Assembly: GCA_963823225.1 (NCBI GenBank)
Contig: CAWGKM010000003.1
Span: 1,584,274-1,648,273 of the forward strand
Origin: an uncultured Alphaproteobacteria bacterium
GTDB lineage: Bacteria > Pseudomonadota > Alphaproteobacteria > Rhizobiales > Xanthobacteraceae
DNA length: 64,000 bases
Direction of reading: 5' to 3'
In this document: positions 17,106 through 19,201 of the stretch, one piece after another
Numbering within the stretch: position 1 is the first letter of the stretch
Layout of the letters: every line of letters begins with the position of its first letter
Program-made: the position numbers and the translations under genes
The notes under the pieces: model-generated
Databases searched by the model: none
What the model was told of the DNA's origin: nothing
The model's input: the letters and a program-made list of their open reading frames with translations, nothing else

Positions 17106-17906
17106 ATGAGTTCGACAGCACAAAAAGCCGCCCAAAAGGCCGCCCTGATCACCGGAGCCGCGCGCGGGATCGGGCTTGCGACCGCCAAACGATTCCTTGC
17201 CGACGGTTGGCGCGTCGCTCTGCTCGATATCGACACCGAGACGCTCAATCGCACGCACGCCGCATTGGCCGAGCCCGATAAGACAATCGCCATCATTTGC
17301 GACGTTGCCGATGCTGCCGGCGTTACCGACGCGGTTGCAACCGTCGCGAAAAATTTCGGCCGGCTCGATGCGCTCGTCAACAATGCCGGAATTGCGATCT
17401 TCAAGCCGATCCTCGACGTCACCTACGAGGATTGGTCGCGCGTCTTGGCCGTCAATCTCACCGGCCCGTTTCTGTGTACGCAGGCGGCGACGCCGCTGAT
17501 GCGCGACAGCGGCGGCGGCGCCATCGTCAACATTACATCCATATCGGGGCTGCGCGCTTCGACGCTACGCACGGCCTACGGCACGAGCAAAGCGGGCCTT
17601 GCGCATCTCACCCAACAGCAGGCGGTCGAACTGGCGTCACTCGGCATCCGGGTCAATGCCGTCGCGCCGGGGCCGGTGAACACCGCCATGGCGAAGTCCG
17701 TCCACACCCCGGAGATCCGCGCCGCCTATCACGACGCCATCCCGCTCAACCGCTATGGACTGGAACAAGAGCTCGCCGAAGCGATCTTCTTCCTGTGCAG
17801 CGACCGCGCCAGCTATATCACCGGACAAACGATCGCGGTCGACGGCGGATTTGAAGCTACAGGCATTGGCCTGCCGGCGCTGCGCGGGAGCGGGCGGAAT
17901 AGCTGA
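17106..17906 (+). CDS. SDR-family oxidoreductase
   Basis: TGAARGIG glycine motif, NNAG, and the YGTSK catalytic motif. Confidence 0.85.
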   Translation: MSSTAQKAAQKAALITGAARGIGLATAKRFLADGWRVALLDIDTETLNRTHAALAEPDKTIAIICDVADAAGVTDAVATVAKNFGRLDALVNNAGIAIFKPILDVTYEDWSRVLAVNLTGPFLCTQAATPLMRDSGGGAIVNITSISGLRASTLRTAYGTSKAGLAHLTQQQAVELASLGIRVNAVAPGPVNTAMAKSVHTPEIRAAYHDAIPLNRYGLEQELAEAIFFLCSDRASYITGQTIAVDGGFEATGIGLPALRGSGRNS

Positions 17907-17910
17907 GCGC

Positions 17911-18000
17911 CTATTTCCGATACGCCGCTTTCGGATCGAACACTTTTTCGCCGGCGAATTCGAGCTTGACCGCACCCGGTTTGCCAAGCGGCACGGCGCG
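17911..18000 (-). pseudogene. Orphan duplicate of the hisI 3' end (last ~29 codons plus stop)
   Basis: About 93% identical to 18755-18845. Translates to [29 protein letters not shown], against the live hisI C-terminus [29 protein letters not shown]. Confidence 0.85.
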
Positions 18001-18099
18001 AGCAATTGCTGGCGCACTCCCTCTCTCCGCGCGGCGCAGAGAGGTGAACTAGAAACTCGATCCCACGGCGCGATTGCGCGCGGGTTTGTCAAACAGCGA

Positions 18100-18262
18100 A
18101 CGGTACCGGCCGTCATTGCGAGGAGCGAAGCGACGACCCACCTTCGCTCGCTTCGTGAGCTACGGTGGGTTTGAGTCCACCGAAGCGGAGCGCGTAGGTG
18201 GAAGCAATCCAGAGCGGAACGGTAAAGAACTGGATTGCTTCGCTTGCGCTCGCAATGGCGAA
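18100..18262. repeat. REP/RIME-like nested palindromes
   Basis: Inverted repeats: cattgcgag..(18113) with ctcgcaatg (18250); ggaagcaatccag (18200) with ctggattgcttc (18230); acccacc/ggtgggt; tccacc/ggtgga. Confidence 0.7.
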
Positions 18263-18659
18263 AGAAAGAAAGGAAGCGGAACGCCGGCAAACGCAGGGTA
18301 CTACCTCCCGCACCAAGCGGGTGCGGGTCGCGCCACGGAAAGGCGGCTTGCGCCGCCCTTCCGCTTGCGGGCGCGCTCGCCTGCCGGCGTTCCACCACGG
18401 CTCTCGCCAGAGGGACTTACGTCGCCTCAGGCGCAACTCAGGCCAGGCTTCCTGGGACGCGGCCGCTTTTGTCGGGCGGCGTTACCGCCCCTGCCTGTCC
18501 CAGTCCAGCGAAGCACCTCGCACGCCGGTCGTAATGCCGGCAGGCATGATACCCAAGCCGCCCGGGAGCGCAGCTGATGAGGCCACGCCCGCGGGCACCG
18601 CACTCGCCCCCGCCGTCCGGCATCACCGGCCGGCGTCCTTTTAGGGCGAGATTTGATTC
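18262..18659 (-). ncRNA. Candidate ~400-nt structured non-coding RNA of unknown class
   Basis: Lies downstream of a near-consensus promoter. 12-bp long-range helix 18382-18393/18278-18289. GCAA-capped hairpin at 18337-18362, GUAA-capped hairpin near 18474-18491 enclosed by CTGGGAC/GTCCCAG, hairpin at 18307-18327, then a U-rich tract. No convincing ORF. Confidence 0.35.
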
Positions 18660-18665
18660 GTTGGT

Positions 18666-18694
18666 TTTATAACTGAAATCGTGACTAATGTCAA
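18666..18694 (-). promoter_or_regulatory. Sigma70-like promoter TTGACA-N17-TATAAA
   Basis: The minus strand reads tgTTGACAttagtcacgatttcagtTATAAAacc. It sits in an AT-rich patch between the hisI terminator and the GC-rich segment. Confidence 0.5.
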
Positions 18695-18720
18695 CAGAAC
18701 AGTGACGCGAGCCGGCGAGT

Positions 18721-18754
18721 GCAAAATTCGCCTCTCCCCAGCAGCGGGGAGAGG
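18721..18754 (-). terminator. Rho-independent-like terminator after hisI
   Basis: Perfect 9-bp stem CCTCTCCCC/GGGGAGAGG directly after the hisI stop, followed on the minus strand by CGAATTTTG. Confidence 0.55.
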
Positions 18755-19201
18755 TTATTTGCGATACGCCGCTTTCGGATCGAACACTTTCTCGCCGGCG
18801 AATTCGAGCTTGACCGCACCCGACTTGCCGAGCGGCACGGCGCGATAAAAGCACGAGCGCCGGCCGGTGTGGCAGGCGGCGACCGTTTGCTCGACCTTGA
18901 TCCACACCGCGTCCTGATCGCAGTCGATGCGCATTTCGACGACGCGCTGGGTGTGGCCGGAGGTCTCGCCCTTCTTCCACAGCGCACCGCGCGAGCGGCT
19001 GAAATACCATGCTTCGCCGGTTGCGATGGTCTTGACCAGCGCCTCGGCATTCATATGCGCCACCATCAGCACCTCGCCGGTGCCGGCATCGGTGGCGACG
19101 GCCGTGACCAGGCCGTCGCCGTCGAATTTCGGCGTCAGCGCAATGCCGTCTTCAAGATCGGCGGCGCCGCCCGGCGCTGCAAATGGTGAGTTCACCGCCA
19201 C
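18755..19201 (-). CDS. hisI: Phosphoribosyl-AMP cyclohydrolase
   Basis: [25 protein letters not shown]...[20 protein letters not shown]...DCDQDAVW is canonical HisI. Confidence 0.9.

Follow-up and report, generated by a model that had tools for sequence, protein, structure and literature searches.

The window, by which we mean the whole 64,000-nucleotide stretch of DNA analysed here, probably carries on its minus strand an intact member of a hitherto undescribed gene family, in which each gene is free-standing and encodes a structured non-coding RNA (ncRNA) of about 400 nt. It comes from the genome of a soil bacterium belonging to an uncultured MAG lineage, in which the gene is repeated at dispersed sites, and each copy forms a self-contained unit composed of a predicted promoter, a three-domain RNA, a putative terminator helix with a U-rich tail and a downstream hairpin. 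Large, strongly structured bacterial RNAs without known function are rare, and to our knowledge every such RNA solved to date has revealed new biology, in the form of ribozymes, guide RNAs or RNA cages. We found nothing in the literature on an RNA of this kind, nor on the choice of target by IS1595, the family of an insertion sequence (IS) that is nested in other copies of the gene. The features of the locus in the window are as follows.

18755-19201: hisI open reading frame
18749..18845, minus strand: direct repeat copy 1, the functional last 91 nt of hisI with its stop codon and 6 nt
18002..18748, minus strand: whole insert, 747 bp, between two copies of the hisI 3' end
18731..18754, minus strand: hairpin CCTCTCCCCGCTGCTGGGGAGAGG directly after the hisI stop codon, belonging to the insert
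18695..18707, minus strand: conserved leader CGTCACTGTTCTG at the 5' end of the repeat unit, preceding the -35 box (conservation profile and boundary alignment of 27 copies)
18689..18694, minus strand: -35 box TTGACA, read directly from the sequence
18666..18671, minus strand: -10 box TATAAA, after a 17-nt spacer
18654..18661, minus strand: ACGAATCA at the predicted transcription start, counterpart of the IS hot spot GTGCGAAT, uninterrupted in the window copy
18262..18659, minus strand: predicted transcript of the structured RNA, 398 nt, three domains (fold, consensus pairs, covariation and strand test)
18603..18650, minus strand: 5' domain, comprising helix 1 (18650-18644 with 18609-18603) around an invariant AAGGAC, and helix 2 (covariation)
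18397..18601, minus strand: central multi-branched domain, in which one hairpin has the conserved loop CAYUAYGA and another is GUAA-capped
18450..18457, minus strand: TCCCAGGA, an 8-bp IS target in three other copies, uninterrupted in the window copy
18275..18396, minus strand: 3' domain with a 21-bp closing helix (18396-18376 with 18296-18275)
18260..18276, minus strand: pyrimidine/U-rich tail after the closing helix, CTTCCTTTCTTTCTTTC
18096..18259, minus strand: variable REP-type hairpin module between the RNA and the downstream hairpin
18052..18095, minus strand: conserved downstream block, TGTTTGACAAAC followed by the hairpin GCGCGCAATCGCGC at 18081-18068
18020..18046, minus strand: GC-rich hairpin CACCTCTCTGCGCCGCGCGGAGAGAGG at the 3' edge of the insert
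17905..18001, minus strand: direct repeat copy 2, an orphan hisI 3' end

Promoter, fold and strand of the proposed RNA gene

The first-pass annotation of this DNA described a near-consensus promoter on the minus strand driving a GC-rich, unclassified RNA of about 400 nt that is rich in compensating helices and encodes no real open reading frame, and the Rfam, covariation, strand, -35 conservation and coding tests reported below all agree with that description. The promoter elements are exactly as it gave them (TTGACA at 18694-18689, a 17-nt spacer and TATAAA at 18671-18666), as is the contrast in composition, the promoter region containing 44.7% GC and the 398-nt transcript region 69.3%, compared with 63.4% for the window. 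An automated promoter scan that demands T at position 6 of the -10 box passes over TATAAA. A perfect TTGACA is present in all 24 genome copies whose 5' end escapes IS disruption, and TTGAC[ATC] is retained in 17 of 21 cross-genus sequences, and the -35 box is kept between genera at a mean column identity of 42%. The spacer of the window copy carries a palindrome, GTCAC...GT(G/T)AT, that represents a candidate operator, and a different palindrome is found in the equivalent spacer in other genera. The promoter architecture of the family is of the sigma-70 type, consisting of TTGACA, a palindrome-holding spacer of 16-18 nt and a TA-rich -10 box.

Transcription is predicted to start at about 18659 and to terminate at about 18262, where the closing helix and the U-rich tail would serve as an intrinsic terminator. 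A closing helix plus U tract is found in every copy; the tail that the annotation had noted at the end of the segment is located at 18276-18260, and other copies have 6-9 consecutive U at this position. The segment of about 400 nt is thus present where it had been placed, but the conserved unit is longer than was then supposed, extending from about 18707 to about 18050. Conservation of a putative promoter and terminator together with the RNA is the pattern expected of a free-standing ncRNA gene. The downstream hairpin block accompanies the RNA gene in all genera and its conserved hairpin sits past the predicted terminator, which we count against our preferred explanation.

The window copy has a minimum free energy of -234.1 kcal/mol, compared with -198.8 +/- 6.1 for 100 dinucleotide shuffles (z = -5.83), none of which folds as well, and it forms 124 of the 127 consensus pairs. 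The 12-bp long-range pair proposed by the annotation, GGAACGCCGGCA (18393-18382) with TGCCGGCGTTCC (18289-18278), lies inside the 21-bp helix that closes the 3' domain, the most conserved portion of the RNA family, and each hairpin that it listed (18337-18362, 18307-18327, 18474-18491 within 18452-18503, and 18524-18541) is part of the consensus structure conserved in the family. Compensatory changes are seen both among paralogues and between genera. Within the genus 92% of cells are paired and 43 of 128 pairs change on both sides, compared with 23.9 +/- 2.6 in shuffles (0/500 as high) and 11-23 in slid registers. Between genera 88.4% of cells are paired and 48 of 93 pairs change on both sides, compared with 31.3 +/- 2.8 when shuffled (0/500), and the covariation score is 0.343, compared with at most 0.107 for slid registers. 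Shuffle controls on related sequences inflate significance somewhat, an effect that the slid registers and the cross-genus data mitigate. Helix 1 alternates between CUCGCCC/GGGCGAG and CCCGCUC/GAGCGGG in different genera, and the long-range and nested multi-branch helices also covary between genera.

The strand-specificity tests agree on the minus strand as the sense strand, as had been proposed. The alifold energy is -270.8 in the sense direction and -237.2 in the antisense direction, all 37 of 37 sequences fold better in sense, and covariance-model scores are 39-84 bits in sense compared with no more than 24 in antisense. Helix positions hold 520 G-U pairs versus 110 A-C pairs, and this G-U bias shows that selection acts on the RNA and not on double-stranded DNA. 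Taken together the comparisons indicate that structure is selected on the minus-strand transcript, and compensatory conservation of a predicted secondary structure on one strand is again what is looked for in an ncRNA gene.

A search of the region with Rfam 15, which includes models for RNase P, tmRNA, SRP, 6S, the cobalamin, TPP and glycine riboswitches, group I and II introns, HEARO, OLE, ROOL, GOLLD and raiA, gave no match at gathering thresholds, and up to E = 10 returned two chance-level matches only (16.8 and 9.7 bits). Homologues from other genera likewise had no Rfam match, in keeping with the earlier assignment to an unclassified family. An ORF-less group II intron was considered and rejected, as no Rfam model matches and the unit has its own conserved promoter.

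Copies, the hisI insertion and the nested insertion sequence

The annotation had treated the RNA as a single candidate; the RNA itself stands, but the family is multicopy and dispersed, and the genome from which the window derives contains 44 BLAST matches, of which 27 are full length; with about 15 fragments besides, the gene occurs some 40 times in this genome. Copies are present in 35 of 36 genomes of the genus, where most species carry many and the number ranges from 0 to about 40, and the family has expanded in this genus to some 30-40 dispersed copies per genome. We know of no copy numbers near 40 other than in mobile elements. A covariance model of the 3' domain (R1) finds the RNA in 24 of 62 sampled genera of the Xanthobacteraceae, with 1-7 copies. 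No RNA was found in a thin sample of the order (150 genomes, with three other genera of the family); this sample alone would wrongly suggest restriction to one genus, since the denser sample of 62 genera gave matches. Plasmid records gave no match to the RNA gene.

The copies are intergenic, and their neighbours differ from genus to genus. Clustering of the open reading frames around 131 copies yielded only Arg-rich artefact frames that lie over the element itself, and in these 131 contexts we found no protein gene systematically linked to the RNA, and no linked reverse transcriptase, transposase or recombinase. A RAYT-like gene adjoins one distant copy.

Paralogues are 72-97% identical in nucleotide sequence, promoter included. 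The closest are 92-97% identical, compared with 74-82% for copies at orthologous sites in other species, which suggests that copies are homogenised or replaced within a genome. Among 18 syntenic sites, 10 are occupied and 8 are empty in the window genome; 10 of the 18 are common to other species, and many copies are therefore old and stable. At the 8 empty sites the flanks are 77-90% identical, the intergenic DNA being too diverged for base-level alignment of the junctions.

The window copy itself lies in the insert downstream of hisI, which is absent in all relatives examined; in these hisI abuts a convergent citE-like gene. This difference indicates that the window copy arrived after the species split from the sampled relatives. 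A repeat search revealed a 97-nt direct repeat, 92% identical, on either side of the insert, and hisI stayed intact because the insertion duplicated these 97 nt of its 3' end. A second copy in the genome is associated with a 55-63-nt duplication of a gene end. Long flanking duplications are thus seen in 2 of 27 copies and in none of the other 25, and the ends of the element show no terminal inverted repeats and no recurrent short target duplication at a fixed position above chance. A template/variable repeat pair resembling that of a diversity-generating retroelement was considered for the hisI duplication and rejected, as the differences between the repeats are not adenine-specific. The annotation also referred to a hisI terminator, an assignment that we withdraw: the hairpin CCTCTCCCCGCTGCTGGGGAGAGG is part of the inserted DNA, together with GAATTTTGCA it also precedes four other copies, and relatives have no hairpin after hisI. 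At the other edge a hairpin of the CACCTCTCTGCGCCGCGCGGAGAGAGG type, or of a second type, follows most copies, and some copies have REP-type hairpins in direct orientation at both edges. The variable module contains a 77-nt REP (18131-18205) with more than 60 copies in the genome, and the REP-type module is missing from homologues in other genera.

We propose that the RNA would act in trans as a stable folded RNA of the protein-binding or scaffold type, and not as a short antisense regulator. The gene probably spreads as DNA, since its promoter and downstream hairpin travel with it, by a recombination route that may sometimes duplicate 55-97 nt of the target. The 30-40 copies per genome are unusual for a cellular trans-acting RNA and count against this proposal, and the conserved fold might serve the propagation of the element itself rather than the cell. 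It is accordingly possible, although we consider it unlikely, that the unit is a selfish, protein-less mobile element whose fold is of no use to the cell; candidates are a SINE-like template copied by a reverse transcriptase of the host, and an element of the ribozyme-like or single-strand-DNA-hairpin type moved by a host HUH/RAYT-type or other recombinase. Such an element would account for copy numbers that are high and differ greatly within one genus (0 to about 40), the patchy distribution among genera (24/62), the existence of both occupied and empty sites, the lineage-specific insertion at hisI, the varying length of the target duplication (55-97 nt), the greater similarity of paralogues than of copies at orthologous sites, the directly oriented REP-type hairpins that border some copies on both sides and the RAYT-like gene beside one distant copy. 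Retroposition of its own transcript is made less likely by the promoter, which lies upstream of the predicted start and is copied with the unit. The 131 contexts provide no linked enzyme of mobility, terminal repeats and a fixed target duplication are lacking, the 10 of 18 sites common to other species point to old and stable copies, and the G-U bias reflects selection on RNA and not on double-stranded DNA.

A conventional mobile element does reside in the family, as a guest. The nested IS encodes a transposase with matches to Pfam PF12762 (DDE_Tnp_IS1595, E = 4e-39) and PF12760 (N-terminal zinc ribbon, E = 2e-14), its ends are perfect inverted repeats of 24-27 nt and it is flanked by 8-bp target duplications (TCCCAGGA, TTCGGGAG, ATTCGCAC and GTTTTAAG); domains, inverted repeats and duplication length all place it in the IS1595 family. 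The RNA gene is a preferred landing site of this lineage, harbouring 11 of 13 IS copies in the window genome and 11 of 17 in other species. The IS occupies three different internal sites of the gene, in both orientations, with the 8-bp targets GTGCGAAT, CTCCCGAA and TCCCAGGA, one of which appears to resemble the terminal repeat of the IS. Since these inverted repeats and 8-bp duplications belong to the IS itself, it is a guest and not the owner of the RNA gene. The RNA unit as a transposase-less IS1595 derivative or MITE was rejected, as the IS has its own ends, three internal sites and both orientations, and the RNA unit has no inverted termini. Matches of the RNA promoter beside transposase genes in other species were artefactual, as the query used had included an IS end. 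A HEARO or omega RNA was also rejected: no neighbour protein family is shared in the 131 contexts and the sole nearby transposase is the DDE enzyme of IS1595, with its own ends.

In a rather improbable combination of these ideas, an RNA gene lacking any protein would spread through genomes as a whole and require its fold in order to do so, as a bacterial counterpart of a SINE or ribozyme-type element, and would at the same time be the dedicated homing site of one IS1595 lineage. The IS might then find its target by way of the RNA or its transcription bubble, protein-DNA recognition not being the only means.

Readings without a free-standing functional RNA

It is very unlikely that the family is a DNA-level repeat, similar to a large REP/BIME or MITE, which lacks a functional RNA and whose helices are by-products of palindromic DNA recognised by a protein. 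REP-type palindromes are indeed nested in and around the element, which is multicopy and intergenic. The many G-U pairs in the helices, however, would become A-C mismatches on the opposite strand (520 versus 110), every copy folds better in sense, and the covariance-model scores are strongly asymmetric between the strands. Covariation of long-range, nested multi-branch helices between genera and conservation of a consensus -35 box in register with the -10 box also argue against this explanation, as does the presence of neither terminal inverted repeats nor a target duplication.

The order of promoter, large conserved fold and terminator-like helix with a U tract would also suit a riboswitch, attenuator or other cis-acting leader, in which the closing helix and U tract would form the expression platform for a downstream gene, and some leaders typically have many copies per genome. 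We regard such a role as exceedingly unlikely. In the window the RNA is followed only by the orphan hisI fragment and a convergent SDR gene, and among copies and genera the downstream genes vary in both identity and orientation. Moreover no riboswitch model matches, and identities of 72-97% that include the promoter are unlike those of independent leaders.

Type I toxin mRNAs of the hok type are highly structured, about 400 nt long, multicopy and often inactivated by IS elements, and the present RNA shares their size, strong long-range pairing, own promoter, multiple copies and frequent IS interruption, but that a small peptide is hidden in the fold is barely plausible, as variable sites show no codon periodicity (96/103/105 by codon position), 427 of 478 indels (89%) have lengths not divisible by three, candidate start codons are kept neither between subfamilies nor between genera and the open reading frames that overlap the RNA gene have no Pfam match.

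Significance and likeness to known systems

The RNA family is tractable, as it has a clear predicted promoter and terminator and rich covariation from dozens of paralogues per genome in many genera, and some carrier lineages have one to few copies and complete genomes, making a knockout possible. The IS1595 lineage can serve as a model of how a DDE transposase locates a target defined by sequence or structure, and of the 'safe-haven' use of multicopy RNA genes in bacteria; RNA-guided homing, if true, would for the first time connect a DDE transposase of the IS1595 family with a structured RNA. Two insertion sites with duplicated gene ends indicate a little-understood route of DNA insertion.

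Several known systems share part of this behaviour. REP/BIME and MITE sequences are likewise dispersed, intergenic and rich in hairpins, and REP units are nested in the RNA element, but the latter is far larger, has a multi-branched, strand-specific fold and a promoter, and lacks terminal inverted repeats or a fixed target duplication. Integrative elements that use gene 3' ends (tRNA, tmRNA and protein-gene att sites) also repeat the end of a gene, here the last 55-97 nt, and leave it intact; in contrast the insert at hisI is only 747 bp and has no integrase, the copies lie at unrelated genes and 25 of 27 have no repeat. HEARO and omega RNAs, the guides of IscB and TnpB in IS200/IS605 elements, are similarly multicopy, mobile in appearance and a few hundred nt long, with some ORF-less copies, but the HEARO model does not match, no IscB, TnpB or TnpA is found beside any of the 131 copies, and the RNA described here has its own predicted upstream promoter and terminator outside transposon ends.

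The relationship between the IS and the RNA gene is reminiscent of R1/R2 retrotransposons in rDNA and of elements that target tRNA genes, where one lineage occupies few fixed positions in a multicopy RNA gene and disables single copies of a redundant family, although the guest in the present case is a bacterial DDE IS of the IS1595 family and the host gene is an uncharacterised RNA. The RNA itself resembles the large 'ornate' RNAs OLE, ROOL, GOLLD and raiA, whose functions are at best beginning to emerge and which are also several hundred nt long and multi-domain with abundant GNRA-type loops, are free-standing without an obligatory neighbour gene, and were found by comparative genomics with support from covariation and not from a known function. 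None of their Rfam models matches this RNA, and whereas they are as a rule single-copy and known from other phyla or from prophages, the family described here is restricted to a single alphaproteobacterial family, with up to about 40 dispersed copies.

Promoter, fold and anatomy of the unit

Direct reading of the minus strand bears out the promoter TTGACA-17 nt-TATAAA proposed in the first-pass annotation, which an automated promoter scan missed solely through demanding T at position 6 of the -10 box. The unit has the following features.

18694-18689, minus: -35 box TTGACA, read in the sequence
18671-18666, minus: -10 box TATAAA, with a 17-nt spacer from the -35 box
18659-18262, minus: predicted transcript region of 398 nt, downstream of the promoter
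18650-18603, minus: 5' domain
18601-18397, minus: central multi-branched domain
18396-18376 with 18296-18275, minus: 3' domain, with a 21-bp closing helix
18276-18260, minus: pyrimidine/U-rich tail after the closing helix
18095-18052, minus: downstream hairpin block
18046-18020, minus: GC-rich terminal hairpin at the end of the insert

The GC content is 44.7% in the promoter region, 69.3% in the 398-nt RNA region and 63.4% in the window. The folding energy of 18659-18262 is -234.1 kcal/mol, compared with -198.8 +/- 6.1 for shuffled sequences (z = -5.83), and none of 100 dinucleotide-preserving shuffles folds as well. All the helices listed in the first-pass annotation are real and each belongs to the conserved structure; its failure to recognise a known RNA family agrees with the Rfam 15 search, which placed no match here at gathering thresholds over the window and none up to E = 10 in the region. 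Elsewhere in the window a group I intron match (RF00028; 55992-56178, minus strand) scores 51 bits, where the gathering score is 50.

In 27 copies the conserved span starts about 13 nt upstream of TTGACA (~18707) and ends at ~18050. A perfect TTGACA followed 16-18 nt downstream by a TA-rich hexamer is present in all 24 copies with an uninterrupted 5' end, and 17 of the 21 cross-genus sequences retain TTGAC[ATC]. The promoter spacer contains a palindrome (GTCAC-N7-GTGAT/C in this genus, TCCTA-N3-TAGGA-like in other genera) that is a possible operator. The closing helix and the tail are likely to form an intrinsic terminator, because the tail is pyrimidine/U-rich and contains 6-9 consecutive U in other copies. 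The hairpin block lies merely 40-50 nt past the 3' domain in other genera; in this genus the spacer before it (18259-18096) has been invaded by REP-type palindromes. A 77-nt REP-like palindromic repeat at 18131-18205 recurs more than 60 times elsewhere in the genome, 85-91% identical and often in tandem, and a second REP type (CGTAGCCCGGAT...ATCCGGGCTACG) fills the same slot in other copies. Each end of the unit carries the motif CTGTT(T)GACA, identically oriented: once in the promoter (18689-18694) and once in the downstream block (18087-18092).

Distribution, conserved structure and strand

A 446-nt query matched 44 times within the genome that contains the window (70-92% identity; 27 full length), and of 36 genomes from the genus 35 have many copies. 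A pattern from two invariant blocks returned more than 104 loci, all from uncultured soil Alphaproteobacteria or 'Xanthobacteraceae bacterium' MAGs, and no match among the plasmid records searched. A covariance model built on the 3' domain, the best-conserved part of the RNA, detected nothing in a sparse sampling of the order; across the family it matched at full length in 24 of the 62 genera sampled, with 1-7 copies per genome in the other genera versus 13-15 or more in this genus. Homology in the other matching genera extends beyond the 3' domain and can be recognised over the entire RNA.

Within the genus, a 128-pair structure was scored on an alignment of 37 copies, made up of 27 paralogues and 10 copies of related species; 92.0% of cells are paired and 43 pairs change on both sides, compared with 23.9 +/- 2.6 in shuffles (0 of 500 reach 43) and 11-23 in slid-register controls. 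The cross-genus alignment (21 sequences from 11 genera, mean column identity 42%) has 88.4% of cells paired over a 93-pair structure, with 48 double-sided changes versus 31.3 +/- 2.8 in shuffles (0 of 500) and a covariation score of 0.343 versus at most 0.107 in slid registers. The candidate RNA has held up in this homologue search and covariation check, in that relatives carry copies and compensatory changes exceed those of shuffles. The consensus energy is -270.8 in the sense direction versus -237.2 in antisense, the sense fold is the better one in 37 of 37 sequences, and covariance-model scores are 39-84 bits versus at most 24. The structure is real and specific to the minus strand, as the first-pass annotation had proposed; consensus energy, G-U excess and covariance-model scores all agree.

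These data are best read as a new family of RNA genes that are structured and free-standing. We favour an RNA that would act in trans, as a stable, protein-binding or scaffold-type molecule whose promoter is regulated; as the chief alternative, the fold would serve solely the element's own propagation. Three further explanations are contradicted by specific tests. A pure DNA repeat is at odds with the sense-strand fold preference and with the 520 G-U against 110 A-C oppositions in the helices, an excess that has no comparable counterpart in the structure predicted for the antisense strand. A cis-acting leader is opposed by gene context, since 131 contexts revealed no protein family linked to the unit and the neighbours differ in low-copy genera. 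A toxin mRNA does not accord with the even distribution of variable columns over codon positions (96/103/105) or with the indels, 427 of 478 of which have lengths not divisible by three. The alignments show no conservation of possible start codons, and long ORFs overlapping the region on both strands gave no Pfam match. The region is non-coding and its reading frames are artefacts, as had been supposed.

In a further genus (locus L219) the region ~350-880 nt upstream of a distant RNA copy contains an ORF resembling REP-associated tyrosine transposases (MTSYRRNFSPGASYFFTVNL...); this proximity may be coincidence.

The duplicated hisI end and turnover of the unit

The end of hisI (its last 91 nt, the stop codon and 6 nt) is present twice, at 18749-18845 and 17905-18001; the repeats are 92% identical and 844 nt apart, and the 747 bp separating them contain the RNA unit. 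The element is absent downstream of hisI in all relatives examined, and in several of them the stops of hisI and a convergent citE-like gene directly abut, and a terminator hairpin is lacking. Judged from this arrangement, the window copy was inserted into hisI. Right after the hisI stop lies a hairpin (18754-18731), also found ahead of four other copies, that had been taken for hisI's own terminator; because hisI of several relatives lacks such a hairpin, it came in with the insert instead. An SDR-family gene (17106-17906, plus strand), whose stop codon overlaps the orphan hisI repeat, lies between that repeat and the citE-like gene and is a separate lineage-specific gain, since hisI abuts the citE-like gene in several related species.

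The copy at C3:147352 in the same genome has the same geometry, with a flanking duplication of 55-63 nt (92-94% identical) copied from the 3' end of a membrane-protein gene that runs convergently. Among the remaining 25 copies, long flanking repeats are absent and short ones do not recur. At 18 loci of other species with both flanks syntenic here, the orthologous site is occupied in 10 and empty in 8. The closest paralogue pairs are 93-97% identical, with the likeness limited to the unit, and copies occupying the orthologous positions in other species reach only 74-82% identity, no better than their flanks; this fits replacement or gene conversion between copies. On the best reading the unit is accessory, dispersed and probably mobile in its behaviour, and would spread as DNA because the promoter and downstream hairpin move along with it.

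The nested IS1595-type element

Several split copies of the RNA gene pointed to a 304-aa protein that combines the domains DDE_Tnp_IS1595 and Zn_ribbon_IS1595, within an element that has its own 24-27-nt inverted repeats (GGCGA[AT]TAT...CTTGAC) and produces 8-bp target duplications. Thirteen copies of the transposase occur in this genome (64-100% amino-acid identity), 11 of them inside or immediately beside an RNA gene, where three internal sites are used in both orientations. The target sites are as follows.

Site 1, GTGCGAAT: at the predicted transcription start
Site 2, CTCCCGAA: helix-2 loop, in one subfamily
Site 3, TCCCAGGA: around position 225
Site 4, GTTTTAAG: directly upstream of the RNA unit

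As RNA genes take up only ~0.4% of the genome, the association reflects targeting and not chance. Elsewhere in the genus, other species have 17 loci with this transposase, and in 11 it is again joined to the RNA gene, at sites 1 and 2. We considered the RNA unit as a derivative of this element and rejected it, given an insertion sequence with its own inverted repeats and 8-bp duplications at several sites; having its own ends and being repeatedly inserted in the RNA gene, it has the RNA unit as its host.

Two identical copies (C1:201750-202649 and C2:208190-209089) have swapped flanks: each 8-bp duplication, ATTCGCCA as well as CATATATC, has one member at either locus; recombination between the copies has therefore rearranged the genome. 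The copy at C3:645500-648600 carries a 272-aa passenger ORF with an N-terminal membrane segment, a coiled-coil-like middle and no Pfam match. An IS630-family element (DDE_3 and HTH) is present in two further RNA-unit copies, C3:729500-731500 and C1:900400-904200, in the latter beside an IS1595-type element.

On the best reading, one IS lineage takes advantage of the RNA unit as an insertion target. Target site 1 resembles the IS1595-type terminal repeat (GGTGCGAATCAAATCTCGCC versus GGCGAATATCTGCC), which may explain its use. At an RNA locus of another genus (L206), ...CACATAATCGCC abuts the promoter region and likewise resembles this terminal repeat, a likeness which hints that the association may reach beyond this genus.
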